Source: Psammoneis japonica (lineage: Eukaryota). From it: DNA of 64,000 nt. Below the pieces are notes generated by a model. It did not search any database, was not told the origin of the DNA, and saw only the letters and a list, made by a program, of their open reading frames with translations. Below are positions 4,249 to 58,399 of the stretch, in pieces. Position numbers and translations under genes: made by a program. The DNA lies in contig QPGO01000122.1 of the NCBI GenBank assembly GCA_008632985.1, forward strand, positions 124,001 to 188,000. The letters run 5' to 3'. Positions within the stretch are counted from its first letter, which is position 1. The number at the start of each line of letters is the position of its first letter.

Positions 4249-4539
4249 ACCCTCGCCTCACGGATGTACTCTTACAGACCGGAGTGGGATCTACTTGCGA
4301 GTAGGGCACTTCGTACCGCACCGGTAAGTGCGTTCGTTAGTTCCTATCGCTAAATTCTTCAGTTCATCGGCCTAATGCCGATTCACCACACGGTAAATTC
4401 TTCAGCACCGTCTGCGAAAGCCCCGTTTGCATGTTTCAGCAAATGGCGGCGTTTTGACGCGTTCTTGTGTGTGAAACGACCGACAAACGTAGAAAGCTGC
4501 CGTTGCAACGTCAACGGCTGCACGGCGCTCTCAACAAGC

Positions 4540-7150: not shown

Positions 7151-7192
7151 ACTCTGGAGCAGGGATCTCTGCTCTCTCCACTCTAGAGGAGA

Positions 7193-21949: not shown

Positions 21950-24700
21950 TTCTCACACCCGATTTGTCTTAAATGGCATCGTGTGGCCAGCCAAATGCAC
22001 AATGGACAATGCACAAGATCGATCTCATCTGTGCCCCGTGTGAAAAACCATTTCCTCTCTGCTCTCGAGATGACTCTCCCGAGTCAGGCTTTGACATCAC
22101 ACATGTGTCACATTCGTGCTTGCAGGTGCAAATGAGTTGTTTTGCGAGGAGGGAGTGTGGCACAACTGTCGTGGAGCCTGGCGGCCAGAAGCGTCACTTG
22201 GAGCACGAGCCTCGCAGCAGCCAGGTGTGGTGCAACAAGGACCATCGGCATGCTTGACAGCTGCTGTGGGTGCCCACAAATTTGGCACTGGCAACTGGCA
22301 ATTTTGCTTTGAAATCTGCATTCAGAGTGTGCTGCTGCCCAACACCAAGAACAGTGCTCGAGAGGGAGGGCACCAGTGCCACGCAGTGATGCTCCAGAAA
22401 GTGCACAGCTTGCCATGTGTGATGCAAACAATTGCTGAGCAACTTTTGCTTTAAGCATGAGCAACTGCACCCACTCCTGCCTAAAAACAACAACCAACAG
22501 AGATTGGCCCCATCTGAGGAACACTTCAAAAGTGCCAGACAAAGAAGATGGGAGAAAGAAAGAGCTCTCAGGATGGCAGAGCTTGTTTCTAGTTTCTTGT
22601 TGCTTTTTCTCTTGCAAGCCACAAGCAGTCAATCAAAGTCAGCAGAAGGCAGTGCAAAAAAACATTGTGTTGATGACCCACATCATCAACTCTCAGCTTG
22701 CTGCTGGCAGGCAGGCCAAGGCCAAAATGTGGGCAGGCTGAAAAGGTGACAGGAGAGAAGGGCATCAAAATGTCAAAATCTTCCTCAGCTTTGAAAAAAT
22801 GATTTTAAAAAGCATTGAAATTGTGCTGGCATGCAGAGGTGACCAGGTTGCTCAGCTGTTAGAGGAGAGCCAAAACACAAGATGTCTGAAGTCCATGCAA
22901 TGCAACAAGAATGGCGTTGCACACAATGACGCGAAAAAAGAAAAAAAGTCTCCATTTGCCAAGCAACCCTGAGCTGTGAGGAGGAATGTTTTTTGCAATT
23001 TTGTGTCAGAGTGCACCAGTGATCCCAACAAAAGTGGTCAAGTCAGTGCCAGATGGCAAGTTGTCTGACCACAACACAAAGACAAAAAATGCCAGTGGAA
23101 GGTGCCATTTGGCGTGGGTGCTGGCCACACAAAAAGCATCAAGGACAGCCCAGAGTTGCTGCAAAAGACATCAATTTGGTTGCAAAAATTTTGGGACCAG
23201 ATGCTGGTGGCCTCAAAGGGAAAAGCACAGAGTGCAGATCAGAAGCCAGCTCCCAGCAATCAACAATGGCGCAGAGACCCTCTGAAGGAACCCATGACTG
23301 CCAAGCAAGTGTGCCATCTTGCCAAAATGAGCAGCATGCCAAAAGGCCTCAAGATTAAGAGTCAAGCTGGCAAAATGCTTTTTGACAACACTTGGCATGC
23401 AGGAGCAGACAAGACAAAGAAAAATTGGGCAAGGAACGCTTCAAAGAGAAAAAAAGAAAATGAGAAGATTGACTGCTCTGCAAGAAAATTGTTGTGCAGC
23501 ATGGCTGACAGAGACAAAATTGAAGATCTTGAATGTGAGAAAAGATCATGCAGACAACACTCAAGATGCAAAAAGTCCTCTGCCAGAAGAGAGCACTCAA
23601 GGGTCTGAAAAAGATCTTGCTTCTCTTCCCAACAAAAACTAAAAATTGGAGTGTTTGACTGACAAGTCCAAAGAGGCACTTCTTTCATTCAGAAGCCAAG
23701 TTCAGAAAATGAAACTCAAAATGATCAGAAAAAAGATGTGCTGGATGCCATCATGAACAAGGTGATGGCTGTTCAAGCAACAAAAACTCAAGATTTCTTT
23801 GGACAAGATCTGCCAGACCACACCACCAAAACCTTCAATGTGCAGCAATGCCAATGTCATCATCTGCAAGCTCAAGCTGCCAACAAAGTTGAGAAGCACT
23901 TGTTGTTGGCAGCAACAGCAAGAGCAGTCATGGCCACAGTGTGTGTGTTTTTGTGCCAGGTGTTCATGCCTCCCTGTCTGTGTGACTGCATTGAAAACAA
24001 TGAGTGTGAAAGATTGCATCAAAAATGAGGCAAGTGAAAGACATGATGCCGTTCAAGATTCAAGGGGTGCTGGCATGCTGTGGGAGAAAGCAGTCTCATG
24101 TTTCCAACAACAAAAAAGATGGGGTGGCAAAGTCAAGGTGCACACATTCTCTCTGCACAAGGAAGCATGACAAAGTGCCACACACAGGAAAGATGAAGAC
24201 TCATCTGTGTGAAATGTTGAACTCTTCTCACCACTCAATTGCAAGATGCTCCAACACAACATTGAATCAATCAAATTTGGTGCAATGAATTTGCTTTCTT
24301 GCAGCTGTAAGCAGAAAGCAGCACACTTTTTTTGGCATGCTGCAGATGATTGAGAGCATCAACTCACAGCATGGACAGCAACACCAATGGTGACAAGCTT
24401 CTCAAGCAGCTTGTGAAAAAAAGCATGTCATGTCTGGGTGTGATTCTGGGTTTTGTTCAACTCCAGAAGCGTTGCAAGTTGATCAAGTTGCATGTGTGCT
24501 GCACTCCATGTTTGAGGAGTTAAAGGAACTGTCAGGGGGGAAGATGGGCTGCCCATGCAGTGCAAATCTGTGCAAGGTTGGAATGACCTACAAAATGTCA
24601 GAGCCCAAGGAGCAAGCTCAGCTCTTTTGTTTTTTGCTGTGAAAGGCATCATGTTTGTCTGCAAGAGAGGCAAACAGAGTGGTTGACCTGCCTTGCCTCC
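21950..24700 (+). mobile_element. Highly decayed Ty1/copia (CoDi-like) retrotransposon relic
   Basis: Residual peptides ILGPDAGGLKGKS (about 23190), MPKGLKIK..G..LFD.TW.AG.D (about 23340) and KKDG..K.R (about 24115) recall diatom copia pol; TpA and CpG nearly absent. Confidence 0.6.
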
Positions 24701-27224
24701 CTCTCTTTCTGCTCATGTTGCCAAAGTGCCATCAAGCTGGATTTAAAAAAAAAAAACTTGCAACACTTTTGAGCATTCTTGACAGAACTTGCTGCAATGT
24801 TTGCCTCTTCACTCAAGGCAAGCAATGATCAGAACATTGGTGCACAGCACATTGGTGCTGTTTCTTGAGCTCCCACTCACACATTGACTTAAAAAAAGGC
24901 CTTGCTGCTGGTGGCATCACAATGCTGGTCAATGGCGCCATTTTGCCTGTGCAAGGTGCACAAAACAAAGGGCTGATTTGGCCAGCTCTGTCAATGCAAA
25001 GGCCATCACTGGAGACACTGTTGGGGTGGCCAAAGGTTTTTTGGACCAAACCCTCCATTCAAGCTCAAGGATGCACAATGTTGTCAAAATGGAAACAACC
25101 CAAGTGCCATGAAGTCTGGAACAGAATGGCAGGGCAAGCTCTGAAAAAGGTGTGTGGGACTTTGACATTGGGCATTTTTACATTGTGTCACTGGCCTCAC
25201 CAAGCAAGGGCAAAGTTGAGGTTGTGTCATCACCTGTGCAACAGTCAAAATGAAAGCTGTCCTCATGACAAAGCCAGAAGCTGGACCAGATTTGTTTGTG
25301 ATTGTGAGGACACTGTGAACTTTCAACGCTGGGTTGCCAGATCATTGGACCAAAGAATTGGGCTGCAAGAAGAAAGTTTTGGCTGGTCATGTTCTTGATC
25401 TGTTGGCAAACAGTTGCCTGGAGCACATGAAGTTTGAGTTTCAGCTGTGTTGTCAGTTGATCAAGGGCATTTGAAAACTCACATTGTCACCAGTTCAAGC
25501 AGCAAATCTCAGAGCCACAGGGCAAGAAAACACAACAAGTGTCAGGACAACATAAAAAAATTTGCAAAAATGTTCAAATCTGACAAAAAAACAAACCAAG
25601 AAGCCTGAAGCCTTGGCTTCTGTTTGAGCACAGGTGGCAAAGGACAGCACATGTGGATCAGCTCACTCGTGGGGTTTTTTGCTCTTTTGTTGGGTTTTTT
25701 GCTCTGTTGTTGACATTTCTGTGTGGTGCAAGATTGTCCTTTTCTTTGGATGTCTGCACTGACACTTCAGTTCTCTCTAAAAAGCAACAAGACCTAAAAG
25801 GAAAATCTCAGCAGCACAGCATGGTGTGAGTTTGAGAATGTGACATGTTTGCTCACACTTTCTCTGTGCATCTGCAGCCGTTTGGTGTGAACAAACGTGC
25901 TGTCTTGCACAACCTTTTTGTTTCACCCAGCACATGAAAATGTGACAATTCTTGTTGGTCATTTTTGTTGATGTTGCAGAAAAAAGAGCAAGTCATTTGG
26001 GGCAGCAATGACAGAAAAGCAGTTTGCCTGGTGTGGCCGCCGGCTGCAATCAATGCATCAATTGCCCTCTGTTGCTCTCCAAATCTGCTTCTTCCAGTGG
26101 CTGGTGCACTCATGAATGAGCTCTCTGATTGGTTTTGGTGCAAGCCACAAGAACCAGATCTTGAGCTTGAGGTCCAGATCTGAGGCACCTGGATTTGGAT
26201 CTCTGCTGACCAGAGAGCTGCAAATGGTGCTGGGTGATGTCGGCTGCAAGCTGCAAGCAAAAACTCACTCTCAACTGCCAACAACATGCAGTGCAATGTT
26301 GATGAGAGAAAAGAGTGAGCTTGCCAAAGCTCAAACGGTGCTTGCAAACTTGTGTGCTGCATCAGCATCATGAAAAGCAGTGCAGATCATGAAAACAACC
26401 CCACACTCATGCAGAGGGGGGGGGGCATGCAGGGGGCAGGTGCAGACCACTGTCTCTCAGCCATTGGTCTCCAATCTGCACTGAAGCATTTTTGAGAGTG
26501 CAAAAAACATGGCCAGCAGATTGTTTGTTGCTGCAGGAGGTTCAGTCAGAAGATTGGCTCCCAGCCTTTTTTTGCACTTTGGTTGATCTCGCTTCTCATT
26601 GATGCAGTCACAACAATGATTTCTGTGCTTGTGTCTCTGTCAAGGGGCCTGCAGGACCAAATCAACTCTGCCACATTGCACAGAAGCACTGCTGGGGCAA
26701 ACTGGAGGTGGCTCACACATGAGTTTGCAGGTTGGATGCCCTCAAAGGTGATTTTGCTCATGCTTTGTGTGTGCTCTGATGATGCACACACAGCTTCAAC
26801 CCAAGGAAAACCCTGCTTGGCAGCATTTTTTTGTTTGTTTTGCAAATCAAATGATTCATCAAGAAAACATTAATCTTCTGAACCTGCAAGTCAACTTGCA
26901 GAAGAGCCCGGGCTTCCAGACTTGTGTGTGTGGCCTCTGGCACACACCACACACATTTTTGTAACTTTTTTTTGTTCAGAGCAAGCAACATTCATCGAGG
27001 ACCAGTGTCTGGTCTGTGTGGTTCTTCAGACAAAATTGAAAATGGCACAGGGTTGATCAGCTGCCCTGCTGTGCATCAGCCAGCCATGCAACCCCCACTC
27101 TTGCTCTTGTTTGTGGCTCGCAGCTGTGTGAGCCTTCACCTCCTCCTGGGTGCCAATGGAGTCAGCGGTTTTCAAGTTTTGCTGGGGTTTGTGTTTTGTT
27201 TCTGATCAGAAGATGTTTCTGTTT
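24700..27224. repeat. Decayed repeat-derived DNA of unassigned class; target of the copia insertion
   Basis: Same TpA/CpG-depleted composition; no recognisable intact ORF. Confidence 0.45.
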
Positions 27225-27457
27225 GGTCACGACTCAACGTCATTCTGGTCGCATCTCACGACTGCAACCCAGACTCAGATTTTCTCTTCGAAACAATTGG
27301 CTCATCACAAAATCGATTCAAACAGAAGCAACGACATTCGTCATAATTTTTAGACAACGACTTTGAACAAGCGTCTGTTTGCCTCTGTGCTGCTCACATT
27401 GCTGCCAACCTCCGAGGTCTTGTCCATCCTACCCAGCTGCAGGACTGCATCTCGACT
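27225..27457 (+). repeat. 5' LTR (hypermutated)
   Basis: Ungapped match to 34234-34466 with 12 substitutions. Confidence 0.95.
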
Positions 27458-27619
27458 GGTCACAGAACCCAAGTTTACGCGTTGACGAGAGCTCCTGACC
27501 GAGTCATCGTCACGGATGCTTTCGGTTTTGATTTTGAAGCAAACCCGGGAAATGGCTGAGTCTCTCTCGCTTCTCTCGTCTTCATTCTAACAAGAACCTC
27601 CCATGCCACACTCTCTGTC

Positions 27620-29050
27620 ATGGCTGCCATCTCGATCCGGCTGTTCTGGCGAAGGCGTTTGCCGACGCAATGGCCGCCAACGCCGCAGCGACCGCTCCTC
27701 TGCCTCCAACCAAGCCGTTGTGTGGTGGAATTCACCCAACCCACGGGGCCCACATTGGTGGTTCCAAACTCAACGACAGGTGTGAACAATCCAACGACAG
27801 AACCTGCTGACTCGCCTCTCAGCGCCGTCATCCCAAGGCTCTTGACTCAACAGAACGATCTCTCCGCGATCAACAAGCTTCCGCAATGACTTCCAAGTTC
27901 AACGGTCGACTTGAGATTTTGGACGGTCCCATCAACGAACTTGACAAGGACCATTTCGTCAAGACCATTCGAGATCTAGCAGAAGCCCACGGTCAGCAGA
28001 CGTTCTGCCATGTCAAGAACAGCGACGACACGGTTCAACGCATCTTCGATCATCTTCACGAGCCCACTGTGACCGATCTCGTGAACGAGCACACGGTTTG
28101 GAAAGCAGCCACCGATGATGCCAAGTATGACGAGATCAAGCTCGACGACATCGGGCTCTCTCAACTTCTCGTTCACTCAAGAATCACCAACGCCTTTCGC
28201 GAGAAAATCGAGACCAAGTTCAACCATCTCCAAGACTGCCAAGACTGCCCTGGATCTGTTCTGTTCATGATGGCTCTCGACACTTGCAATGCCAGCGCTC
28301 TAACGGACATTGAGACGGCCAAGAAGCAGCCAGAAGACCTTGGTTTGGTCAACCATCCCGGCAAGGATTGCACGGACTTTGCCACCGAAGCTCTTCGCAT
28401 CGTGAAAATTGTGCAGACCGACTGCGCGCTTCCAGCGAACACAAGCTCCAAGCTGCTCCACAAGATCTCCTCTACGTCCTCTGAACACTTCAATCGGCGA
28501 GTCCGCAACAAGCTCGACGACGTCAAGGCTATGGAACGCAAGTGCCGCCTCAAGAATCCTGCTGACATCGTGTCCGACAGCGATTGCAACACGCTCGGAC
28601 CGGTCGGCATCATTGTGTGGATTCAGGAGCAACACAACGAACTCGTGAAGGACGGGGAGTGGCCTGCATTGGTCGCCAAGCTACCCGAGAGCAATCTTTC
28701 GACTGCGGATGACCCTGGGAAGACGAAGCACTGCTTTGGTTGCGGTCTCGAGGGGTGCACCAAGAAGACGTGCCCGAAGTGCAACGCCAAACCGCCGCGC
28801 AACGATCCTCCTCCCAATCCGCCGCCTGCAGCCGACCCTTCTAAGAAGAAGAGGTGACCCATCGCTGCCTGGCGTGCTAAATTTGACAGGGAAACGAAGA
28901 AGGATGAGAATGGCAAGGAATGGAAATGGTGTGCCACGTGCACGGCGAAGGGTGCCGACAAACCTGGAATTTGCCAGAAGCACTCTACCGCGGAACACAC
29001 GAAGACCACCACAAGCGCCCTCCCAAGGAGACCCCAGCCGGGAATTTGTC
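27620..29050 (+). pseudogene. gag region of the copia element with a degenerate zinc knuckle
   Basis: ORF pieces 27620-27889 and 27886-28857; CFGCG.EG.TK..CP knuckle; WKWCATC-type motif at about 28920; interrupted by stops or frameshifts. Confidence 0.7.
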
Positions 29051-30439
29051 TTCTGTTGCTGATCCGGATGGTGGCGTGCCCATGGGTCCGCCAGCTCAGA
29101 CTGCCATGGAACCAGAGGGAGACGACTCCGACCCCAACGAGTTGGTTTTCTCAGGAATGTGGTGCGCGGCTACGGATGCCGTTGCCGACCCAGATTTCTG
29201 TTCCGCCCCTGTTGCTGCTGCAATTGTTGTCACTCCGGCTTCTTCGGCCGAGAGGGAGAGCGATGCAGTCGTCAGCACTGAGGTGGTTTGCAACGAAACG
29301 AGCCCACCTGCACTCACCTCAGTCGTGGATCCAGTCGTGTCTCCCATCGTGGTTGAGACTGTCACTCCCGAAGATGCCGATGACTTCTGCGAATGCTCCG
29401 ACGCTTTCTCTACATTTGAAAACGAACCACCAGCTATTGAGTTGTTTCCGGCCTCGAAGCTGCACTCCATCAAGCATTCAGATGAGTTCTTTGACGCTCC
29501 CGCACATTTGATGGACATGCTGTCAGACGACACAAAGTTGGATCTCATCCTTGAACACGACGTACACTTTGAAGACGCACACCACGACTCACCTCCGTGT
29601 GTCACATGTCGTGGCTTTGATTTCTACGATCCAGAGGTCCTGGATGCGGATGATTGTCACGAGGACGTCGAAGACGAGCCCACTTTGCGTCGATCAATCT
29701 TGGGACGGGTCAAACTGTTCATGTTCTGGCTCGCCGCCATGTTTTGGGAAACGGCACTACATCTTTGCTTTGCTCCGATCCCATGCATCCCTCGAGCTCT
29801 ATGCCGCCAGCGCAAACTCCCAACCTTGCACGGGTTTCCAGCCTCCTGGATGGTCCCATCCGTTGCAGTGATGGCATGGTCAGCAGTTTGCGCCGGTCAA
29901 CAGCCCGAGTGTCCATTCTCGAACGTTCCAAGCCGTTTTTCGACCGCTGGCTCTCAAGTCTACCATGTTGTGGAAGAGCTAGATGACCGGACAGTGTTGG
30001 ATGCGGGGTCACTGTTCGAACATCACAGGATCAAAGGCACGCAAGTGCTCACCGAGTTTGTCGCGCGCCATCCATCACACGCACTGAGCACTCGTCTCAA
30101 GGCCCACTGGGAGAGCCTGGGAGCAGCTGAACGGTCTGATGCGATGGACGAATCAGCCTTCTTTGACACCTGTGAGGAACTGGAACCTCTCGACGACCAG
30201 AAGTATTTCTTCGACGCTCTTGAGGACTTCAGCCCGGATTTCTTCCGGTTTGACGAGCTCTGTCTGCCGAATCACATCGTGGACACTGCCCATTTTCAAG
30301 ATCCTGTGGAACTGTTGGAGGAAGCAAGTGTCAGACCCGTCGTCTACAACACCTCCACCATCCAACTGCTCACTGGACAATCTCAAGCCGACCTCCTTGC
30401 ATCCGATCCGCAGGCACTCATCGGCCTGTCGGACGAGGC

Positions 30440-33400
30440 TCTCGGTCGTCATGGATGCTGGTGCCACGCTGGCTGTTGCCCCCGACAAAGATGATTTTAC
30501 GGGGCCTGTGACTGTTCCCAAGAAACCCTCACAGATCAATGGGATTGCCAATGGTCCAACCATCCAGGGTGCAGGTCCGGTTGCGTGGGTGTTCACAACG
30601 CCGAGTGGCGCAGCCATCCAACTGAACACCATGGCATGCTACGTCCCTGGAGCCCGTCAACGCCTGCCATCGCCTCAATGCCTCTTCAACGAAGAGAAGG
30701 GGGCACGTGGGAAGCATGAGGGTGATGAAACCACTTTCCGTTTACACATTGACGGGATGGGCAAGTTGGTCGTGCCATGTCATCAACCAAGCCACTTGCC
30801 CATTGCGTCGATGACCAAGGGCGCATCTGCCGCTCCACAAGTGAATCTACAGATCCTTGACGAGGAGAATCAAAACCTCACGGCAGGCCAGAAGCTTCTT
30901 GTCGAAATGCACGCCCGTTTCGGCCATTTGAACTTTGGTCGCGTCCAAGCACTTCTCCGCGCAGTTCCATTCCTTTCGAACCGTTTCAAGTCCGCAGCGA
31001 AGTGTGACCACCCAAGATGCGAGGCATGCGAGTGTGCTAAAGGTCACAGACGCTCCCTTGGATCTACTCACAAGTCGACAGTCCCTGAATGCGACGGGGC
31101 CCTTCGAGCTGACCATCTTCGACCGGGTCAGGCTGTCAGCGTTGATCATTTTGAGTCGCGCCTTTTAGGCCGAACCTTCGACTCACATGGCAAAGCCACG
31201 TCCAAGCAATTCAAGGGCGGTTGCATCTTTGTCGACCATGCCTCTGGATGTGTCCAGGTTGAGCACCAACTTGGTTTCTCCACTGTTGAGACGATTCGAG
31301 CAAAGCAAGCGTTTGAGAAACATGCTTTGGACCACGGTGTCATCGTCCAAGAATTTCTTGCCGATGGTGGCGCTTTCAAGGCCAACGCTTTTGTGCAACA
31401 CATGCGAGACCATGAACAACGTCTCCGTTTTTGTGGAACCAACGCCCATCATCAGAACGGCGTCGCAGAGCGGGGTGTCCGAAGCATCTCCAACATGGCG
31501 AGAGCGATGTTGCTTCATGCATCAATCCACTGGAAAGGGGGAATTGACAGCTCCCTGTGGCCCATGGCTGTTTCTCATGCCACGCACATCTACAATGTCA
31601 CCCCAAATTCCAAGGGACATTGCCCAGTGGACATTTTCACCGGTTCGACAGTGCCAAGACATCGATTGCGAGACATTCACACATGGGGATGTCCAGCGTG
31701 CGCACTTGATCCAACCCTTGCTTCCGGAAAGAAACTCCCGCGTTGGGAACCTCGCACTCGTCGCGCTTTGTTCGTGGGACTCAGTGCCATCCATTCCAGT
31801 GAGGTTCCTTTGGTCCTCAATCTACAAACTGGCAGTGTCACTCCTCAGCATCATGTGGTCTTTGACGATCTCTTCACAACCGCGCCATCAATCGAGAGGG
31901 AGACGGATCCACCTGATCACTGGGAACACTTGTGCCTCAACCAATCGACATGCATCCCTCTGGAGAAGGATCAAGCAGTTCATTTGCACGATGAGTGGCT
32001 TGCCCCTCCAGAGCGTCAACGTAAAGAGCGAGAACTGGCCAGAGCAACACGTGTTCGCGGCCATTTTGAGCCTGCTCCATCAATTGCTGTGCCGGATTCA
32101 CCCACTTCTCGTGACGACGTCACCGATCGAGTCGCACCTGCGACTCAGCAGCCAACGCCACCAGTCCCACCTGCGACTCAAACTCCTGCAGACTCCACGG
32201 ACTCTACGCCAATTCAGCCACCTGAACCTCAAGATGGCAACGAACTTCCGCCACCCAAAGTGCCGGCGGAACCAACAGCTCCTCCCCCAGTCGAGACACC
32301 TCCTGTGACGAATCCAGAGGGAGCACCAGGGCTGCGATGGTCTTCACGGTCAACCAAGGGACAGCTCAACTCTGCCAAGTTTGCAGATGAGGTCCACCTC
32401 AGCTCCGTCGAGGAAATGCCACCACCGATCGGACACGAGGCTCAACTGGCATGTCTGGCAACTCTCGAGATGGATTTGGACAGTGGCGCCATCAATGTCG
32501 GCGATCCATGAGCCTACGCAGCTAGCAAGAAAACCAAGGACCCTGACATGCCTTCGTCACACAATGCTCTGAAAGGTCCAGACACCGACGAATGGACCAA
32601 GGCGACGAAAATTGAAGTCAACGCACTCACACATCGTCGAGCCTGGAAAGCAGTCGAGCGTCAGCCGCACATGAATGCACTTCCAGGTGCATGGGCACTC
32701 AAGCTCAAGAGACTCCCAGATGGAACCCCTCTCAAGTGTGAGGCCCGATGCTGCGTCCGCGGTGATTTACAGAAAGAAGGAGTCAACTGCTTCAAAACCT
32801 GCGCGCCGGTTGTGCAATGGTCCAGCGTCCGACTCATGCTCACTGCGGCATTAAAGGAGGGATGGACCACATGTCAGGTGGACTGTGCCACAGCCTTTTG
32901 CCAAGCTGATGTCACCGAGGAAGTTCACACAACACCGCCGAAGGGATTTGCGCTGAGGTCGGGACTCAGTGTGGTTCTCAAACTTTTGAAAGGACCACAC
33001 GGCCTAAAACAGTCTCCCAAGGGCTTCTGCGAGAAGTTACGAGCTGGTTTAACCGAGCGCGGATGGGTGCCTTCAGCCACAGATCCCTGTTTGTATTTCA
33101 AAGAGGGTGTGATGTGTGTGGTGCACGTCGACGACACCGCATTTGCTGGAGCTTCAGCTGAAGCTCTAGAAGCAGAAATTTGCAAGTCAGGAGTCTCCGA
33201 CGACGAACATCGCCACGTGTTTGAACTAAGAGACGAAGGAGAAGTCGGCAACTTTCTCGGTGTCAAGATCAAAAAGCTCTCCGAGGGTCGATTTCTACCC
33301 ACTCAACCCGGTCTAATTGACAAGGTCCTGCGTGCCGCACAGATGCAGGATTGCAATGGAGCATCCACTCCAGCTCTGCCCACGGCTGTTGGTGCCGACA

Positions 33401-34212
33401 CGGATGGCCCACCTTTTGATGAACCCTGCAATTGTCGCTCAGTTGTTGGAATGTTGATGCACTTGGCAGCGAACAGCCGGCCAGACATTGCATGTGCCAC
33501 ACATCAAGTGGCTCGATTCTCGTTTGCACCCCGAGCGTCCCACGCTGCTGCAGTGAAGCGGATGCTCCGACACCTCAAAGCAACTGCTGCTGAAGGTCTC
33601 ATTCTCAAGCCTGCGCAAGATCATCGAGTTGATTGTCACGTCGATTCTGACTTCGAGGGGTCATTTGGTGTGGAAGATGGTCAAGACCCAGTTTCTGTCA
33701 AGTCCAGGACTGGACACCTCATCTGCTGCGCCGGCTGCCCGCTCATCTGGGTGTCCAAGCTGCAGACTCTTGTGGCATTGTCGACTGTGGAAGCGGAGTG
33801 TGTCGCACTTTCTCAAGCCATGTGCGATCTCATCCCCATTCGTGAGGTTCTCAAGGAACTCAACCACCACGCACTCGGAAAGTCTGACCGCCAAAATCCC
33901 ATCACGACTCACTCCAAGGCTTTTGAGCTCGCAAACCAAGGCACCGATGACTCACCTGTAGAGCAGAATGTCCTGCCTGCGTCCATTGTGTACGAAGATA
34001 ACTCCGCGTGCCTCAAGTTCGCACGTGTGCCCAAGTTGTCTCCGCGAACCAAACACATCGGCATCCCGCACCACTGGTTTGGGACTAAAGTCGAACAATT
34101 GGAGATCGATGTCCAACCTATCAGCACTCTAGAGCAACTAGCCGATCAGTTCACGAAGGGACTACGGACCGATGCGTTCCGTACGGCTAGAAAGGCTCTT
34201 ATGGGCTGGTAA
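30440..34212 (+). pseudogene. pol (protease, integrase, reverse transcriptase, RNase H) of the copia element
   Basis: VVMDAGA (PR), HARFGH..CEAC (HHCC), VSVDHF / FLADGG / QNGVAER (DDE), HGLKQSP, HVDD, HVDSDF, LSTVEAE, EDNSA, RTKHI, QLADQFTK; in-frame TGA at 32509-32511. Confidence 0.95.
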
Positions 34213-34233
34213 GCTCTCTCGGTTGAGAGGGAG

Positions 34234-34466
34234 AGTCACGACTCAACGTCATTCTGGTCGCATCTCACGACTACAACCCAGACTCAGATTTTCTCTTCGA
34301 AATAATTAGCTCATCACAAAATCGATTCAAACAGAAGCAACGACATTCGTCATAATTTTTAGACAACGACTTTGAACAAGCGTCTGTTTACCTCTGTGCT
34401 ATTCATATTGCTACCAACCTCCGAGGTCTTATCCATCCTACCCAGCTGTAGGACTGTATCTCGACT
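34234..34466 (+). repeat. 3' LTR (close to the ancestral state)
   Basis: Follows the polypurine tract; begins AGTC and ends GACT; followed by TSD tgttt. Confidence 0.95.
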
Positions 34467-35020
34467 TGTTTGAGACAAAAGTTGACTTTTGGAACTTTGT
34501 GTCCTCTCACAGTGCCAAGCAAACTCTGATGGTCTCCAGCTCGCCACACCAGGTCACCACGACACGGTGTGTCAAGCAGCTGTTCTTGGAGTGTCGTCAC
34601 AATCATTTTGCAGCTTTCAATGGACCATATTTGTTGTTCTTTACCCTTTTGCTACTATTTGACTTTTAGATTCCAATCATGCGGACACAACTCAACCTTT
34701 GTCTGATTTTCGCGTCAATTCGTCGCCCCTCCTAGTTTCGAAAACGAGGATTGGTGGAGAGCTCTCCTATGCTCGACGACACTTCTGAAAACAAAAGCTG
34801 ATATTCGCAACGTAACCGATCAACCATATATACACTTGCCTTTTCCCTATCATCGGGTATGCGCACTATCAAATCGCTTAACTTGGTATCCTCGGTGAAA
34901 TCTCTTTAGAAAGTGCGATACGTTGTTTGACACAGAATTACTTGTGCTGATTGACTTTCAAAACATGCCCGAGAGATTTGGCGCTCATAAACTTACTTAA
35001 TCTGATGCTCTGTCGCATAA

Positions 35021-35270
35021 GGGGCAAGCCATGAGCCGTGCTTGTTGGGAAGTTTTGAGCACAATGTCATTTACGAACGTTTGATGCAAAACTTTGATAT
35101 GGAATCCCAAACAGCTCTGATTCCAAAACTGGTGTCTGCGACTCTAGCCATTGACACCAATCATGTATTTCACCACACCTTTCCATATCGCTTCTGCAGA
35201 CATACTCGGCTATCCTTAAAGCCACACTACAGCATTTGACGACTATGGAGTCAACGGTATTCCTAATTAT
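35021..35270 (+). pseudogene. Orphan 3' fragment of a SUN-domain gene
   Basis: LLGSFEHNVIYERLMQNF..IPKLVSATLAIDTNH..YRF aligns with LLGSYEYNVNHERVLQVF..IPKLQSVTLAIDTNH..YRF at 15110-15290. Confidence 0.8.
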
Positions 35271-36983
35271 TTATGCACTGAGCTTTGTTGTTAGCTTCCC
35301 ATCTCGTTGTCTGTCAAAGCTTCCATTCTCATAGATTGTTCCGACCTCCCACAATATCTTGAAATCCATCTCGCGGTGATTTTCCTTGTTACGTCTCATT
35401 CGAAAGGTCCCACGCATCACTTGGTCGGATTGTAGCGTTGGTACTCCATCCGCCAGGGGATCAAACCAAAGTGTCGTTTGCTTCCAATGGGTTGCTCTCG
35501 ATTGGCAGCCTGTACTAAACGTAACGAGATGAAGCTGGGAATCGAATGCAATGTCAAAGGAAACAACCAACTTGTCTATTGCAATGACAGCCTTGTTGCC
35601 ATCATTTTTTGGTTTCAATTCAAATTCAGCACAAAAGTCCAAGTCCTCGTCTCGACAAGTGTTTAAATCAAAGGTAATCAGTTTACAACGATTCGTCACA
35701 ATGGCTTCCGGAGGAACAATTTCGACACTTGCTTCTTCCGTCAATTCTCTCGCAACGCGTGTTTTCATGGGCGTCATGTCTATATCGTACACATTGTTCC
35801 AATAGTTCATTGCCAGATCCGAGGCTCCCTCCAAGAATATTGTAGAACCATTGGGAAACATTGTACCTGTCCTCGTCATGAGTGCATCACGTGCCACCAT
35901 GACACTGGGAAGCATGGTTTCAAACAAGAGCGCATATCCCATCCACTCGCTCACAATAACGTCCACTTGTTCATTCTCGTCCAATGGTAATTTTTGATTC
36001 GCAATCAAGTCTTCCACCTTGCCTCGTACACAGTAAATGACTTGTTCGTACCCATTGAGTGCCACAATGTCTCGTGCCTCTTTCAAAATATCCGACCCAT
36101 CAATGGCAACCACTTTGCGAGCACCCGCCCTGGCGGCAAACACAGACAAGACCCCCGTTCCACAACCAATATCCAAAACAACCTTGTCTTGAAAGAGTTG
36201 AGGATTTTTCAAAATGGCATCTTGATAGGCCTTGGTTCGTACGTCATCTTGAAGCATGGTTTGGTGAATGGAATGGTGCGAATACGAGGAAAAGTAGTAC
36301 GTGTCCACGTCGAGCTTTGTTTTTCGTGATGATGGTTTCTTGGAGGAGTCTTCGCTCGATGATTCTTCGAGTAGAGTCAAGGACTTGATGCAAGCCTTGG
36401 CACGTTCAAGTTGTTCTCGCATGGCTTCTACTTGTAATTTCAGAGCTTGTACAGTTTCCCCATCCGAGTGGATTTCCGTTGTTGGTGCAACAACTTGTGC
36501 ATTTTCCAACAATTGCTTCTTTTCGTCGTGTTGTTGTTTCAGAATTTGAAGATCATCCATCGACATGAGAATAGCATCATCCGCCATTACCGGACGAAAG
36601 AACCGTTCATTGTCGTACTGTTCGTCCGTCGTGTTTTGTTCTGCCTCGAGAAAAGCCGACAGTTCCGAGCCAATGGTGTCTTGTGCCGACGTTTTTTTGT
36701 CGTCAATCACAAACGAGCGACACTTGTTGACAAGAACAATAGACTCTTCCAAAAAATCCTGGTGCGTCGCTTTCGGTAAGTAATCGAGCAATTGAAATCC
36801 GTGCGTCTCAACATCGTGCTGTAAAGCGTCCGCTAGGGATGGAAACGAAAGCAATCCACAGGTTTCTGGTTTGCAACAGATTGGATAATACAATTCGTCG
36901 TTGTCATTCTCCTCGATTTCTTCTTCATCCTCATCATCATCATCGGCATTATCCGAAGATACCCAAGAATCCTCTTCCGACAT
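35271..36983 (-). CDS. PRMT3: Type I protein arginine N-methyltransferase, PRMT3-like
   Basis: YYFSSY, MLQD.VRT, VLDIGCGTG, SEWMGY..FE double-E loop, THW loop; N-terminal degenerate C2H2-like region. Confidence 0.9.
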   Translation of the reverse strand: MSEEDSWVSSDNADDDDEDEEEIEENDNDELYYPICCKPETCGLLSFPSLADALQHDVETHGFQLLDYLPKATHQDFLEESIVLVNKCRSFVIDDKKTSAQDTIGSELSAFLEAEQNTTDEQYDNERFFRPVMADDAILMSMDDLQILKQQHDEKKQLLENAQVVAPTTEIHSDGETVQALKLQVEAMREQLERAKACIKSLTLLEESSSEDSSKKPSSRKTKLDVDTYYFSSYSHHSIHQTMLQDDVRTKAYQDAILKNPQLFQDKVVLDIGCGTGVLSVFAARAGARKVVAIDGSDILKEARDIVALNGYEQVIYCVRGKVEDLIANQKLPLDENEQVDVIVSEWMGYALLFETMLPSVMVARDALMTRTGTMFPNGSTIFLEGASDLAMNYWNNVYDIDMTPMKTRVARELTEEASVEIVPPEAIVTNRCKLITFDLNTCRDEDLDFCAEFELKPKNDGNKAVIAIDKLVVSFDIAFDSQLHLVTFSTGCQSRATHWKQTTLWFDPLADGVPTLQSDQVMRGTFRMRRNKENHREMDFKILWEVGTIYENGSFDRQRDGKLTTKLSA

Positions 36984-37083
36984 GGTCTTGATGCTTTCGT
37001 TGTGTCGTTCTTGTTGTCGCTCTTCTTCTTTGCCTCTTTTTGGTTGGGAGAAAAGTGAGCAATGATAAACCTCAAGGATTTTT

Positions 37084-37905
37084 TGAGTGGCTGGAGTTGA
37101 TCCAATGAATCACTTTTGAGTCGTGTTTTGGGCGCGACCGACCTCGTTGAAGGGATTGATTCACGCTTTCCGATCTTTCGACAAAACACATTTGTCTCAA
37201 TCGAGGTGGTTCTCCCTGACCACTTTTTTGCACAATGCTGTAGCCATGCATTCGACGTTTTCATTATCGTCTCATTGCCATTGTTGCCGACCTGCTTTTA
37301 TCACAGCATCATCATCAGGCATTGTCAAAATTCGACTTGAGTGAGGAGGAACAATCCCCAGCACCTTCCCACTTGAAGACTTGAAGAACCCTTTTTGTCG
37401 TGCATGCTGCGGAAGCTGCCATGACATGGACAAGAAGTGAGCCATGACCACTGTTCTCATTTGTTTGTGCTGATCATGAGTGCAGCCTGAAGTGTCAAAA
37501 ATGACAAAAAAGAAGAAACCACAGCACATGCCTGAGTCATGCTTTTCGTCACGGCTGCTCTGAGCTCGTCGATGCGCCTCCTTCTGTTTTTCAATTGCAG
37601 ACGTCACAAAAGACAACAAGGGCATGTTGGCAAAGCTCGAGGCATTGACACATGCCATTGGAGGCTGTGGAGGCCAGCACGAGCGAAACCTCTCCACATC
37701 ACATGTGTGCCATCCCAACAAACGACGATGTGATGGAACACGCACACTCTTGCATGTTGTTCTTCGACTGCCAGCTGGTGTCTGTGCTGGAGGAGGCAAT
37801 GGTCCTTGAGGTGCAATCAAGTTTTGACTTGGGATGGCTGCTTGATGCACTGGCATTGGAAGGGCACAATCTTGATGAGAGATTTTTGGCTTTGGCTTCC
37901 AACCA
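37084..37905 (+). repeat. Hypermutated copy of the segment also present at 45586-47150
   Basis: 37084-37450 matches 45586-45950; 37440-37905 matches 46549-46995 and, more loosely, 45950-46395. Confidence 0.85.
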
Positions 37906-39754
37906 CATCATCCCAGATTGCCTTGATGTGCCGGCACTGGCTGTTGCTGTCCAGGCAAGCAACCTCTGTCAAGTTGAACCTCCCAATTCTTTTCTCAAAG
38001 CATTGCCACCAATGGGACTCATGACCAACTTGCAGCCAAAATGCATCATCACACAACAAGCAACTCAGCTGTTGCAGTTCAGCAGAGAGGCGCACAAAAA
38101 GCCAGCCTGCCAATCATCTCTGTCGTTCTCCACCCTTGGATCACAACCTGGATCACAGTCACAATTGCCGTGCAGCTCTGTCACACCACAATCTTCCAGA
38201 AAATGCACGTCACCTGCGACAGTGACAAATTTGCAAAAGGATGTGAGGCATGGCTCCCTGGCCCCACCTGAGTGACAGCTGTCTTTTGCTCGGCAAGCAA
38301 TTCCCGGACTTGCTCCTCACTGAAACTGATTGACTTTTCTGCAAGCCAGCTGGAGCTCCAGTCTTGGAAGATGATTGAATCATTCTCATTGTTTTGCAAC
38401 TGATGTCACCAAGCGTGTCATCCTTGGAGTTGCGCGGGGACGAATCCTCCTCTTCATCCTCTGGTGAGAACAAATCCTCCTTGCAGTCCTCCGGCAAGAA
38501 CAAATCTTTGTCAGATGACTCATGTGAGAACAAACTGCCATGGTCATTTTTGCTTGAAACTGAAACGTCGATGCGATTTTGACCAGAGTGTGGCTCTTCA
38601 TTGCCCAACAAAGCCTCGCGACACAGAGTGTTTCAACTGTCTGATGGACCGTGACTGGCTGCTTGAAACCCAGAGACAACAACAAAAAAGCGACGATGGA
38701 ATTGAAAATTTTGCAGAAATGGACAAAGGAGGCAAGTTGACAATCCAATGCGAACAACAACTCAACTCACCATGATGATGAAAGAGAGCTTCCGTGGATC
38801 CACACACAGCACCAACAGGGGCTTCTGCAGAGTGGCGGAACATTTTGTCTGAAATGGAAAGACTCAACTCTGTGGTGGAGACAATTGTGCAAGATGTTTG
38901 TTCTGCACTCAGCACTTTTGTCTGAGCTGTTGATGCGCAGCTGCTCTTTGTCGAAGTGGGGATGCTTTGAGGTCAGTGTCCTCCTTCCGTCACTTGATGT
39001 GCATCGGCGGAATTGCATTGTTGCAATTGGCAAAGACGTTTTCCATGCAGAGTGACAAACAAGAGATGTGGCTGTTGTGGGGAGACCAGTGCAAGACTCT
39101 GGTTGCAGCAGCAGTGTCGATTCGAGTGCAACAACAATGTCATGAAATCGGGCGGTTCACGAAATGACAAGAAGCAATCTCTTCCTTGGTGGCACACCCA
39201 AGGATTTGTGAGTCTGACAGACTTAAAAATCCTTGGGCGCACCTGCATGCTTGCAGCATCCACTGTCGAGCCAGTGCGCAGAATCAACAGTGAAAATCAT
39301 CGCAGAAAAAAATTGAATTGATGCACACATTAAAAAAAAACGCGCGCCAAAGCGCTGGAGCAATCGAATGATTCGTGATGATGATTCATTCGATTGCTGT
39401 TCATGTCATTTGAATTCCGACTGCCGGCAGCTTCCATTGATGCTAGAGAAAGAGGTGGAGGGAAGCGCATCAATGAGTCATCCATTTGCTCTAGAAATTG
39501 CACCCAGGCAATGCAATCACTGCACTCTAAGACTTGCCGTACGCACCTTGTCTAACTGGGGTGCGTCCGGTTTTGGGGCGGGGACCACCAGCAGCTGTAG
39601 AGCTCACCCAGATTCTAACTCAATCTGCATTTTTTGTCTCGTCTGCGCGAAAAGCGTTATCCAAGACAAACTGTGTGAGAGAAAGCTGATGACAGGAATG
39701 CTGGAAATGAAAATTCGACATGTCAATGACTCACCAACTGCTGCATTAATCTCA

Positions 39755-41708: not shown

Positions 41709-42879
41709 CAGAAAGTATGGTCTTCAGACGACAAACCTAGATTGTTACTGTAAGGTACAAGTCGTTCCCGACAACGACCCGAATTTATTCAGGACGAGTC
41801 TCAAACCACCTTTACCGATTAGAAGGCAACAAGAAGCAAAAACTAAACAGCACTCAGTGGTATCTCTTGAGGTATTGTATGTCTCGAGGTACTGTGTGAC
41901 TTGAGGAGGTACTGCACTGGATGCTGGATAGGAGCGACTCTGAACTCAGAAGCAACTGAATTGAAACTGTGAGTACTTATCAGGATAGAGCTAATGCACA
42001 TGCATCATGTGTATAAATAGAGACAATCTTATCAGCGTCTTACCTTGTATGAGGAATCGACCGGATGATACAGCGTGTCAAAGTTTCATTGTCACTTCGT
42101 GAAAAAATGTGTGTGTTGTTTTGCAGCGCGTGAGAAAATGAGCAACCCCGCTACTGTACTCGTAAGGTTGGACAGACCGCAACTCGTCGTGTGGACCGAC
42201 CGGACCGACTACTGTAGCTAACGTGGTACCTACTTCTAACTACCGGTATCGACTACCGGTAACTTCTGCGCACGTCTGTGTTTGCAACATCTGCGCGGTG
42301 ACCGTACATACAATCAAAATCTTATAAAGCCTCACACACACAGTCTCAAGTCTCGTGTTGTTCTGCACGATGCGCAATAACGTCGTTGCTCTCACACACA
42401 TCATTGAACATGACGGCTGTGACAGCAAAAAGCCAATGGCACGTCTCTCTCTACTCGGAAATGGGTTGCCGCCGCACTAGATTCGTCAACAGAACAAACA
42501 GTGCCAGCACAATTCGTTCGCAGCACACACAGCTTGCGCCAAACAACCATGACACAGTGCAGCAACTCTTGTGATTTTCCTGCTTGTTGATGTTGCAACT
42601 CATGACACTTGCACTGCTGGTAAATTTGGGTGGGCATAAAACTTGTATGATGCTGCTCAGCAGTGCAATTTGGTCATAGTGTAAAACTTACACTGAACAA
42701 CAACGCCGCTGCAGTGCCCAATTCTTGCCACTTTCCCGCTCCTTGCAACTCACAAGACTTGCACTGGTAAAATTCGGCGAGGATCCTAATTCTTTGGTGA
42801 AGCCTTGGTTGGCTGCTCATTGTTTTTGGAGCAATTTTCTGTTCTCAAAACAGCAGATGTAACCAAGGCTCGTTGGCAT

Positions 42880-45600
42880 TGAGATGTGGCCAAGGCTCGT
42901 TGGCATTGCATTTGGTTTGGCTCATCGTGTCCACAAAATTTCTGTCGATTGTAAAAATGGTGTTGATGGTCTGGTGGAAAGTGCTGCCAACAATGTTCTT
43001 CATCATGCTGAGGATGGAAAACTGACAGTTTCACAGGTGATGGGGTTGGCGGGGTTTTCGGATGCAGACTGACTCTCGCGAAGTCTGCAAAATTGCAGGC
43101 CGAGTCCGAAAAAGAAAGCTGAGCTCGAGGAGAAGACCATCAAAACTTACAGTGTGCCCAAAATGGCACCAATTCCTGTGAGCAAACCCAGTGATTCAGG
43201 TGTGTTGGTTGCTCTGGCTGGCCTCATGGGGGACAACAAGAACAGAGCCTCAAAGAAAATGTGGATGACCAGCAAGCAAGCGGCAGAATCAAGAAAACGA
43301 AAGGCAGAGCTGAAGGAACACAGGACAGCAGTGCACAAGGAAGCAACAATGATGTGCAGTGAGAAGTTGAAAATGGATGAGAGTCAGCAATGCTCAGCAG
43401 AGACAATGGCAAAAGAAACAAATGGGTGAGCCGGGATGAAAATTGGCATCGCGGGTCACACAACACGAAACGAAGTCTGTGACGGGACAGTTGGACTCAC
43501 CCCAGAGAAACCTGGTGTCAAAGGGAAGATCCCCATTTGTGCTTTTAAAGCCCTGTGTGGAGCATTTGAGTCATGCATGAAACTTGCAGTGCAGGAAGGG
43601 AGAAAGGGTTTGACCTCAAAGAATTTGTCCTCCATGATCAATGCTTGCACATGAATTGTCACCCTGACAAGCAACGGACCAGCCGGAAACTGTTTGAGCA
43701 AGTTCAGGATGAAGTTGCCACAATGCTCAACCTCAGGAAAGTAAACAAAATTGAGGAGCAAAGGGCAAAACAGACCACATTCACTGGTGTGAACATCTGG
43801 CTCAACTCGCTTTGAGAGTTTCTTGTGGCCGAAGGTTTTGCCATGCTCAAGAGTGATGCTGATGCTGTCAAAGAATCAAATCAGCTGTGTCATCAGATGC
43901 AGAAGATGACAAAGTGTCAGAGATTGCTTTTCCACCAGGACAACTTGATGGGATTTACAGCATTGACAAAAGCGCCATTGTTTTGGACAATGCCAGCTCC
44001 GAGTCGGGTGGGCATCCAGCATTTAAGTTTTATGACCCATGCCTGCCTGCAAGAGAGGGACCAAGTCAAGTGGCGCACAAGAACTCCCACCGAGCATCAG
44101 GAATGTATGGAGTTGCTGTGTCCGGCAGGGCTTTGCCACCGCACTTTGTCCCACCAATGGATGCCGCATCAGAGAGCCAGAGAATTGATGGCACGGCATT
44201 TGTCAAACACATGAAGTGAGTTGTGTGTTCCATCTTGCACACTCAAACCTGGCAAGTTGCCAGACAACATGGCCAAAATTGCGAATGTCACCAGCTTTCT
44301 GTGCAGCTGGGGCATGAACGAGAAGGGATCAACAACTGAAGAGGAGCTGAACAACTGTTTCCTGAGTGGTTTTGCCAAGCTCTGTCCTGACAAAGCTGAC
44401 ATCCCAGCAGGAAAGAGAGCATTGCCTCTGATTGATGGTGGGCCAGGACAAACCAACCTTCCAATGCTTGCCCACCTGCAGCTGCTGGGAATGCTGCTGT
44501 TCCCCGCTGGCCCGCCAAACACTGCTGCCCTTCTTCAGATCATGAACCAACTGTTTGGTCTCTTCAAGCAGACATTTGGCACAAATTTTGACAAGCTTTG
44601 GGAATGCAGCTTGAACCTGCCACACAACCACCCGGGCCAAGGAAGGCAAAATCAACAAGAATGACATTGGAGAGTCATGATGTTTGGAGGGACACTTGCC
44701 TGTGGCTCCATACACTGTGACCTTGCCAGTGCCTTTGACGAAGCATTTGCACCTGAAAAGATTGCAGCAGAATGGAAGAAAGCTGGGGTCAACCCCTTCA
44801 TGAGAGCCGCTCTCAAGAGCAAGAAGATCAGGCATGAGATTGCAACGAATGGCGAGCAAGGCAATCCAATGTCAGCTTGCCTGTGCAACATTTGCAAGAA
44901 TTGAATGATGTTTCTTGCAACATTCTTGATTTGTTTGGATGCAATGGCTCCAAGTTCCATGTCAAGCTCTTGGTTTGTGACACTCAAGCCCAAAAGAATG
45001 AGATCACGACACCCCACACTGGGGAACGGCAAGATGTGATTGCAAGCGCCAAAAGTCAAGGGGGGCTCTTTGGCGGGTCAACCAAAACAATGGTGATGAC
45101 GTTTTCATTTCAGTCAAGCACATGAAACTTGACAAAGAACTGAAGGCCATGCAAGGCTGGAAAGCAAACAAGGGAGAGTTGGCAAAGAGAGAGCAACAAA
45201 AGCTCAGGAAATGATGGCAGCCAGACCCCCAGTGGTGGTGACCACACAGGTGAGGAGCTCAGGGCTCAGGCATGTGACATCTTGGAAGTCGGGCAAGCCT
45301 TGTCCATCAAAGGTTAAAACCAAGTTAGGCTGCCTCGACCTTTGGGGAACAAGGTTCGAAACAATGAACCTCCGTCATCCACGTGGATGCGCCGGATCAT
45401 GAAGAAAGGCTCTTGGCGATTAAAGCAAAGACAGAAAACTCACCTGTTGAGGACACTGAGTTGGGGCGGCAAGAAGAGCAATCGAGAGATGTGATGTTCG
45501 CCCTGCTTCCTGCATTGACAGGAGATGACAGGGAACGCGCACTGAGGGATCTGGGTCTTCCCGAGCACCAGGTTGGCAAGGATTTTGTGTGGCTGGAGTT
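42880..45600 (+). mobile_element. Decayed pogo/Tc1-like (DDE_1-type) DNA transposase pseudogene
   Basis: LIDGGPG..LPML..L...G.LLFP.GPPNTAALLQIMNQLFGLFKQ and I..EWKKAGVNPF match the DDE_1 PxNTTxxLQxxDxxFGxxK and AWxxxGxxP pattern; many stops; TpA-depleted. Confidence 0.65.
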
Positions 45601-57949: not shown

Positions 57950-58399
57950 GTTGAGTCTTTTGTTTTTAGCTTCTGTGCATTGAATGCTTGTTGTGCCGCC
58001 CCGTTGTTCCTCTCCCTCTGATGATGAACCCCGACCCCGACCCCCGACTCGACGTTCGCGTTTGCCGTTTGCGTTGTTGGACAACTGAGAAACGCAAAAA
58101 CGACCTTTTCCTGCCTTTTTCCCACTTTTGGTTACTTTTTGAGGAGGTTTGGGATGGACGGACCTGCTCTCTCTTGGCCAGATAGCTAGAGTGGCCAGAG
58201 TAGAGAGAGTCGTCTTCAACACGGTCGACGCACAGGCAGGAACCGAGAATCGAAAAAAGCCAGGAAACGGAATGTGAAAATGGCGGGCATGACGAAAAAA
58301 TGAGCTTCATGCTCTGTCACATGTTCCTGCGTGATCCCAATCCCAAACTCCTTTTCAATGACGGATCCTGCATGTTCCGCCACCTCATTCTGAGAGCAC

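Follow-up and report, generated by a model that had tools for sequence, protein, structure and literature searches.

Probable post-insertion TpA hypermutation of a Ty1/copia-type retrotransposon in the diatom Psammoneis japonica

The DNA studied here, a stretch of 64,000 nucleotides of the diatom Psammoneis japonica (GenBank assembly GCA_008632985.1, contig QPGO01000122.1, positions 124,001 to 188,000 of the forward strand), is called the window throughout, and all positions are counted from its first letter. Its locus 27226-34466 is a single insertion of a Ty1/copia-type (diatom CoDi-like) long terminal repeat (LTR) retrotransposon, and we consider it very probable that this insertion was mutated, at the DNA level and once it was in place, by a process turning TpA into TpG or CpA over one contiguous domain. 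A preliminary description of the sequence had noticed that cysteine and histidine occupy positions of the pol gene where copia proteins normally have tyrosine, and had proposed that one and the same TpA change was responsible; we compared the element with its relatives, its two LTRs with each other, and repeated sequences of the window among themselves.

The two direct LTRs bounding the element (27226-27457 and 34235-34466) are 232 bp long and 95% identical, and the hexamer TGTTTG, read directly from the sequence as a target-site duplication (TSD), is intact on both flanks (27220-27225 and 34467-34472). The LTRs differ at 11 of 232 positions; ten of these differences are a TA in the 3' LTR facing either TG (six) or CA (four) in the 5' LTR, and the eleventh is a T/C difference adjoining one of the ten. 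The hypermutated 5' LTR retains 3 TAs and the 3' LTR 13, i.e., a loss of 10/13 in the former and of none in the latter, and each has 12 CGs, with 0/12 CpGs differing. The two LTRs of one insertion are known to be identical at integration; with ten differences of the TA type between them, the changes therefore took place in DNA, after insertion and in one LTR only, and RNA or cDNA editing is excluded for the LTR sites. TA loss in the 5' LTR amounts to 1.47 per site, against one difference at 206 non-TA positions; the resulting excess, indirect since it is derived from the LTR pair, is a few hundred-fold over other LTR positions and is of the same order as the thousand-fold excess in the alga Bigelowiella natans (see below). 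In the same domains, CpG decay proceeds separately and more slowly: none of the 12 LTR CpGs was lost, as against 10 of 13 TpAs.

The element is a copia member by descent. Pfam RVT_2 (PF07727) matches its pol region with E = 8e-30 and 104.7 bits, against a cut-off of 31.6, and the gag_pre-integrs and SH3_retrovirus matches upstream of it are weak, under the curated Pfam cut-offs. The order gag, protease, integrase, reverse transcriptase (RT) and RNase H, with the integrase before the RT, was found by tblastn of relatives, which places gag at 27706-28785 (frame 1; P0218, residues 4-388), a middle region at 29484-30365 (frame 3; P0121 and P0122) and protease to RNase H at 30433-34209 (frame 1); a purine run stands directly 5' of the 3' LTR. 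The best pol relatives are 51-62% identical and mostly metagenomic, and the two named ones among the matches listed are from the diatom Fragilaria crotonensis. No second copia was found when 11 relatives were searched by tblastn against the whole window. The copy is dead, because its catalytic motifs read DAG and HVDD and it contains two in-frame TGAs and two frame changes.

For the comparison with the family, the protease-integrase piece and the RT-RNase H piece were each aligned with 60 of 120 listed relatives (264 and 427 matches, respectively), and a column was called a Tyr column if Tyr is the majority residue, in at least 50% of relatives. Of the resulting 34 Tyr columns, the window retains Tyr in 4; Cys replaces it in 12, His in 11 and Phe in 4, and one column each has Ser, Trp and Ile; among the 14 columns with at least 90% Tyr, it was kept in a single one. 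Both halves behave this way, with 2 kept, 6 Cys and 3 His in the 16 Tyr columns of protease-integrase and 2 kept, 6 Cys and 8 His in the 18 of RT-RNase H. Majority residues other than Tyr are kept in 622 of 805 columns, as compared with 4/34 for Tyr (Fisher p = 4.7e-15), and Cys, which makes up 3.3% of the relatives' replacements at Tyr columns, accounts for 12/30 in the window (p = 8e-11). The Tyr content of the window pieces is 0.3-0.5%, against a median of 3.2% in the relatives, and 1 of the 120 relatives has at least three Cys or His at Tyr columns. We saw no strand-coordinated clusters of Cys and His outcomes in a count by eye (12 runs, about 12.5 expected).

The motifs singled out in the preliminary description were checked against these alignments, and most of them were borne out. 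The protease triplet DAG (gat gct ggt, 30454-30462, plus strand) is as had been read, gaT|Gct being one TA-to-TG step from gaT|Act, and in 27 relatives the outer residues are D and G throughout (27/27 each) with T (18) or S (9) between them. The RT catalytic motif is indeed HVDD instead of YVDD (33124-33135, plus strand; gtg cac gtc gac gac at 33121-33135), its CAC codon being preceded by G and its first column being Tyr in 60/60 relatives. Tyr is equally found in 60/60 relatives at the altered positions of HGLKQ and of CRSV, in 44/60 at that of MLMHL (both from CRSVVGMLMHL), in 59/60 for RHLK and in 58/59 for TCAPV (from NCFKTCAPV); for IACA, the column is Y 36, F 21. Other positions had been claimed too readily: NCF, at the start of NCFKTCAPV, is ambiguous (F 30, Y 28), and so is KCEAR (F 34, Y 12, H 9); the H of CHVDSDF does replace a Tyr (49/60), whereas its leading C is a conserved Cys (59/60) and no change at all; likewise, the first H of PHHWF stands for Tyr (57/60), whereas the second is a conserved His. 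The proposed count of Tyr to Cys/His replacements against other substitutions gives 23 of the 34 Tyr columns, and 23 of the 30 in which Tyr was replaced.

It had also been claimed that family conservation gives the direction of the change independently of the LTRs, and this is what we find. Of 213 differences from the family majority, 62 are explained by one TA-to-TG/CA step (23/56 in columns conserved at 90% or more), 14 by CpG loss and none by the reverse step, TG/CA to TA, which is the direction of repeat-induced point mutation (RIP). Replacements due to A-to-G at the first codon position (I>V, T>A, M>V, K>E, S>G, R>G) are preceded by T in 26 of 33 cases (p = 2e-10), the expectation being set by T at 25% of third codon positions. 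The alignments thus support a change polarised from TA to TG/CA, i.e., from AT to GC, which runs counter to the usual bias. From the residues involved, we soundly infer that missense at catalytic positions (YVDD to HVDD, D[T/S]G to DAG) would inactivate the element.

The distribution of TA along the window is that of blocks with sharp edges, and the copia insertion straddles one of these edges. The TA-poor blocks are found at about 500-1500, 4501-9000, 22001 to about 33958, 37001-39400, 42600-45500 and 58100-60400; their observed/expected ratio (o/e) for TA is mostly 0.00-0.15, and the older blocks are devoid of CG too, whereas genes with Pfam domains lie in TA-normal DNA (TA o/e about 0.3-0.9, CG o/e about 1). 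Directly left of the element, the older block 22001-27225 has lost nearly all TA and CG: binned at 500 bp, its o/e values are 0.00-0.13 for TA and 0.00-0.56 for CG (0.00-0.14 within 22501-27000). This block is unique sequence in a public DNA run described below, and none of 11 open reading frames (ORFs) taken from it had a Pfam match; a Pfam search with 60 ORFs of at least 110 aa, drawn from the TA-poor DNA outside the copia and from three normal stretches nearby, gave 0 matches. One may suppose that these other blocks are transposon relics. Many ORFs of 110-220 aa occur in several frames of the TA-poor blocks, as TAA and TAG are gone.

From 27001 to 34000, TA o/e ranges from 0.07 to 0.29 and then rises to 0.6; for the element, it is about 0.14-0.19, and its mutated part has 48 TAs left when 344 are expected from base composition. 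The boundary is abrupt: there is no TA in 33315-33958, and 24 in 33959-34466 (plus strand), an unmutated right end of 508 bp with normal TA density through the 3' LTR. This end consists of the last 276 bp of the interior, i.e., the last 254 bp of pol followed by the polypurine run, and of the 3' LTR with its 13 TAs. Right of the element, the stretch 34467-34627, which begins with the right TSD copy, is TA-free as well, the next TA being at 34628, so that the element probably inserted about 160 bp inside the right edge of the older TA- and CG-free block. Since the element itself contains the edge, and of two initially identical LTRs one was spared, targeting appears to go by position, as in a spreading domain, and not by sequence homology as in RIP.

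Repeated sequences elsewhere in the window were informative as well. The two copies of a tandem duplication of some 1.85 kb (7388-9220 and 9345-11204) are 84% identical, and neither has a Pfam match. Copy 7388-9220 lies in a TA-poor block; compared with 9345-11204, it has lost 51 TAs and 60 CGs, whereas the latter, of normal composition, has lost 4 TAs and 2 CGs; TA o/e is 0.11 in the former and 0.61 in the latter. Another TA-poor stretch, 37073-37903 (TA o/e 0.05), is a copy of 45577-46394 and 46549-46992, themselves in tandem in normal DNA (0.47-0.49); it shows 13 TA losses, with 0 in the reverse direction.

Four non-overlapping repeat pairs within the window provide 96 ancestral TA sites, of which 37 became TG and 36 CA, while 12 are still TA and 11 show some other change. 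Where a pyrimidine stands 3' of A on one strand only (49 informative sites), 38 events fell on that strand and 11 on the other (p = 1.4e-4); the process thus prefers 5'-T-A-pyrimidine (TAY), a quantitative and not an absolute preference. Surviving TAs are enriched in TTAA, CTAA and CTAG, with none in ATAT and one in GTAC (p = 7e-13), and sites that are TAY on both strands make up 4 of the 48 survivors in the element, as compared with 29% of background TAs. An ADAR-like 3' preference was considered and rejected, TAG being among the least mutated contexts. Since Tyr codons are TAY, tyrosine is the most affected residue. Both strands are affected, as judged from 6 TG and 4 CA in the 5' LTR, 12 Cys and 11 His in the Tyr columns, and 37 TG and 36 CA in the repeat pairs.

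One public DNA run contains 48% of the sampled words of the window and has two sister runs from the same sample, no RNA run being among those listed; contigs were built from it with exact 31-letter words. The contig matching 26500-27253, in the TA-free left flank, has a depth of 68 and that matching 34437-35500, on the right, a depth of 65, with 0 differences in either, which makes a base-calling artefact improbable for the TA-free flank. The element itself drew 2405 short variant contigs, whose summed word depth is 2500-6400 as compared with 65-68 in the flanks and does not count copies; the family present is thus large and diverse. Among 40 of 118 variable places, the window has TG or CA where other contigs have CG at 16, and where they have TA at 6; six of those 22 places pair up at three dinucleotides at which the window and the contigs oppose TG to CA, i.e., two alternative derivatives of one TA. 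At 33188, the window has CA and the other contigs TA (97% of depth); this site is Leu in 60/60 relatives.

A scan of metagenomes, with RT alignment, kept 80 of 269 confirmed copia loci; one of the two search patterns contains Tyr, and mutated copies are thus under-sampled in it. The signature was present in 1 of these 80 loci, L039. Its positions 1-1789, 40% identical to the RT of the window, have TA o/e 0.04, CG 0.20, TG 1.64 and CA 1.69; its RT frame, 596 codons long, contains no more than 2 stops, and Tyr persists at 4 of the 11 Tyr columns. This locus could be a mutated copy, or an element purged of its dispensable TAs.

The coding parts, all on the plus strand, tell how far the element is still open. 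The gag region (27706-28857, frame 1) ends in an in-frame TGA (28855-28857); the middle region (28908-30494) is open in frame 3 only; the protease-integrase part of pol (30433-32508) is again in frame 1, and a second in-frame TGA (32509-32511) separates it from the RT-RNase H part (32512-34212), which contains the RVT_2 match. The position of the middle region in frame 3 implies frame changes near 29000 and at about 30438. Some related contigs have an additional C behind 28999, a deletion of two at 29002 and an additional CT behind 30438, the very places of the window's frame changes, and some copies of the family may have one continuous gag-pol frame. The TGA at 32509 is consistent with CGA-to-TGA by CpG decay rather than with a TpA change, because it stands opposite Arg in 26 of the 45 relatives that span it. 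TA-to-TG/CA is unable to make an in-frame TAA, TAG or TGA and does away with TAA and TAG whatever the frame; the TpA process is not the origin of the two in-frame TGAs or of the two frameshifts. Over six frames, TAA and TAG together number 8.6 per kb in the mutated part, 5.9 in the old block and 34.1 in normal DNA. Since the process erases these stops and creates none, the open frame is in part its by-product, and inactivation would come from missense. The earlier proposal that the process inactivates an otherwise nearly open ORF thus stands as regards the missense in HVDD and DAG, and has to be amended as regards the frame, which has two TGAs and two shifts and owes part of its openness to the process itself.

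In the most probable sequence of events, the copia element inserted about 160 bp inside the right edge of the older TA- and CG-free block. A DNA-level process then acted on a contiguous domain that takes in the old block, the 5' LTR and some 6.7 kb of the element, up to about 33959, where some 77-85% of TpAs became TpG or CpA through A:T-to-G:C transitions, the affected adenine being on either strand. Tyr became Cys when the coding strand was affected and His when the opposite strand was, including the Tyr of the RT YVDD, and TA steps across codons yielded Thr>Ala (protease DTG to DAG), Ile>Val and Met>Val. As no stop codon can arise, the element would be killed by missense with its frames staying open, and CpG decay separately erased CG from the old blocks, the LTR CpGs being unchanged since insertion. 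As to the chemistry, the reading to which we tentatively give the most credit, at somewhat less than an even chance, is that an enzyme deaminates adenine in DNA to hypoxanthine, this deaminase being recruited to chromatin that is silenced or foreign. More speculative, and on balance doubtful, is the idea that diatoms and chlorarachniophytes share an old chromatin-guided defence whose effector is a 5'-TAY double-stranded DNA adenine deaminase, a missense-only mirror of RIP; the sharp edge and the spared 3' LTR would then mark the limit of a silenced domain and reflect positional targeting.

Several points weigh against the proposed process or its chemistry. TA is palindromic, so the sequence cannot separate A-to-G from T-to-C on the opposite strand. 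In 3 of 7 mutated Tyr codons in which the opposite strand reads TA-purine, the change was on that opposite strand, contrary to the TAY preference. The public run is possibly the window's own assembly sample, so the support it lends is not independent; in addition, 2 of the 62 inferred TA-loss sites are found among the 40 of 118 variable places, and the Cys and His codons may be private to this copy or inherited from a mutated progenitor. Finally, copia is the only demonstrable transposon or foreign DNA here, the ORFs from the other TA-poor blocks being without Pfam match.

Among the rival explanations, thymine-directed chemistry is the one to which we leave some room, though we hold it improbable: the T of 5'-purine-T-A-3' would be modified, for example to 5-hydroxymethyluracil (hmU), and then fixed as T-to-C. 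All counted LTR and repeat-pair events can be read either way owing to the palindrome, a pyrimidine 3' of A equals a purine 5' of T, and modified thymines in some protists cluster at TpA; the sequence decides neither way, and what speaks for adenine is that clean T-to-C is not the expected product of hmU or of its repair, whereas adenine deamination gives exactly A-to-G. Editing at the RNA level has far less in its favour. An ADAR- or ADAT-like enzyme would act on UA in element RNA or double-stranded RNA, with reverse transcription fixing the result, and a 5' U preference is typical of ADAR and ADAT/TadA substrates, as discussed in the B. natans preprint (see below); hyperedited retroelement copies are also known in animals. 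However, both LTRs are copied from one template and yet differ at 10 TA sites, which contradicts this reading for the LTR sites, DNA that is no retroelement is affected as well (7388-9220 lost 51 TAs and its twin 4, and the old flank is TA-free), and both strands are equally hit. Editing before integration of the ADAR or APOBEC type was likewise rejected: edits shared by both LTRs were looked for, and ten TA-type differences between them were found.

We find it scarcely credible that the signature is an assembly or base-calling artefact, in which TA carrying a modified base in silenced DNA would systematically be read as TG on either strand. Such miscalls, depending on the strand at a palindromic site, would produce a mixture of TG and CA, but the contigs (depth 65-68) show the TA-free flank 26500-27253 without a single difference, the old blocks are also without CG and without recognisable coding capacity, and Illumina sequencing yielded the same changes in B. 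natans. Just as implausible to us is selection in place of mutation, be it avoidance of UpA in the RNA of the family or a functional lineage that uses Cys and His at these positions. UpA avoidance is reported to be widespread in expressed RNA (PMC3829696), and the metagenomic locus L039 is almost TA-free with a nearly open frame and Tyr kept at 4/11; on the other side, residues invariant in 60/60 relatives were removed, including the catalytic Tyr, the changes extend to a non-coding LTR and to one LTR of two, the element has stops and frameshifts, and the signature ends inside it at about 33959.

If the signature is enzymatic, it would point to an enzyme that naturally edits adenine in DNA at a defined three-base motif, and to our knowledge none of this sort has been characterised in eukaryotes; it would also add a route of transposon defence to cytosine methylation and small RNAs in diatoms. 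There are practical consequences for annotation, as TA-erased DNA has few stop codons and long spurious ORFs and escapes domain-based transposon annotation. Dating by LTR divergence fails here too: the pair looks 4.7% diverged, but a single kind of change accounts for 10 of the 11 differences, and these 10 changes are all in the 5' LTR. As a single dated insertion in which one LTR is mutated, the other untouched and the edge of the domain mapped, the locus is a compact test object.

Genes are closely packed in the rest of the window, as long ORFs without introns (EamA, bestrophin, protein arginine methyltransferase, glucokinase, esterase and RNA-dependent RNA polymerase, RdRP). The RdRP gene (Pfam RdRP, E = 1.5e-27; 61028-64000, minus strand) exits the end of the window and adjoins a TA-poor block; the protein arginine methyltransferase gene (35271-37109, minus strand) lies between two such blocks, with TA o/e 0.11 in its start-codon region. 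A TA-rich stretch (20501-21000, TA o/e 1.92) and tandem repeats (20622-21220) lie within a long minus-strand ORF, and at the left end of the window, 262-1433, there is a separate array of diverged tandem repeats low in TA and CG.

How does this signature relate to known systems? Methylation-driven CpG decay also yields TG and CA and accompanies TpA loss in the older blocks; it is, however, much slower here and cannot explain Tyr to Cys or His. RIP, known from Neurospora and other ascomycetes, turns C into T mostly at CpA, thereby creating TpA and stop codons, and mutates both copies of a duplicate. The process seen here resembles it in being a DNA-level, dinucleotide-specific, transition-only hypermutation that disables transposons or duplicated DNA in situ; unlike RIP, it destroys TpA and can create no stop, 0 of 213 differences run in the RIP direction, and one LTR and one member of each repeat pair were mutated while the other was spared. 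We thus rejected RIP, as neither of the two features tested, CpA-to-TpA change that raises TpA and mutation of both duplicate copies, was found.

In animals, APOBEC3 (G to A) and ADAR (A to G) act on cDNA or RNA before integration, so that both LTRs carry the changes, and the preferred 3' neighbour of ADAR is G. The resemblance lies in editing-type transitions that inactivate retroelements with a neighbour-base preference, which for ADAR and ADAT/TadA is a 5' U; in contrast, the changes here came after integration, on both strands and into non-element DNA, in TAY instead of with a 3' G. The target itself is like the diatom CoDi retrotransposons in its copia domain order, its RVT_2 RT and its nearest named relatives from Fragilaria crotonensis; unlike them, this copy is dead, and it is CoDi-like at the level of type.

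Full-text literature searches returned TpA hypermutation in a single preprint, that on B. natans, and none for diatoms. Term searches in the available text of Maumus et al. (2009) on CoDi elements (PMC2806351) gave no hypermutation, dinucleotide bias or point mutation, a term search in that of a paper on diatom DNMTs (PMC9998398) gave no mention of TpA hypermutation, and diatoms have 0 occurrences in the text available of the preprint (bioRxiv 10.64898/2026.01.13.699255).

According to that preprint (Mettrop et al., bioRxiv 10.64898/2026.01.13.699255), of the 231 de novo changes that mutation-accumulation lines of B. natans showed in two integrated viral regions, 230 were A>G or T>C; the GC-biased changes were all on TpA and arose in a giant virus and a virophage integrated into the genome, roughly 1000 times as fast as in the genome overall; TpA-poor clusters rich in CpA and TpG were enriched for reverse-transcriptase and DDE domains; and an ADAT2-like deaminase was proposed as a candidate. 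The two cases share A:T-to-G:C change at TpA giving TpG or CpA depending on the strand, delimited regions, and a rate far over background. They differ in that B. natans is a rhizarian alga with mostly viral inserts, whose events were seen directly in mutation-accumulation lines, and whose depletion is modest (Rho TpA 0.45 in the viral region) compared with TA o/e 0.14-0.19 in our element and 0.00-0.13 in the old blocks; particular to the present case are an LTR retrotransposon as target, the 3' pyrimidine preference, a sharp edge within the element and CpG loss in the old blocks. The locus is thus a second lineage, with a transposon as target and near saturation, for a kind of process described once, in a preprint.

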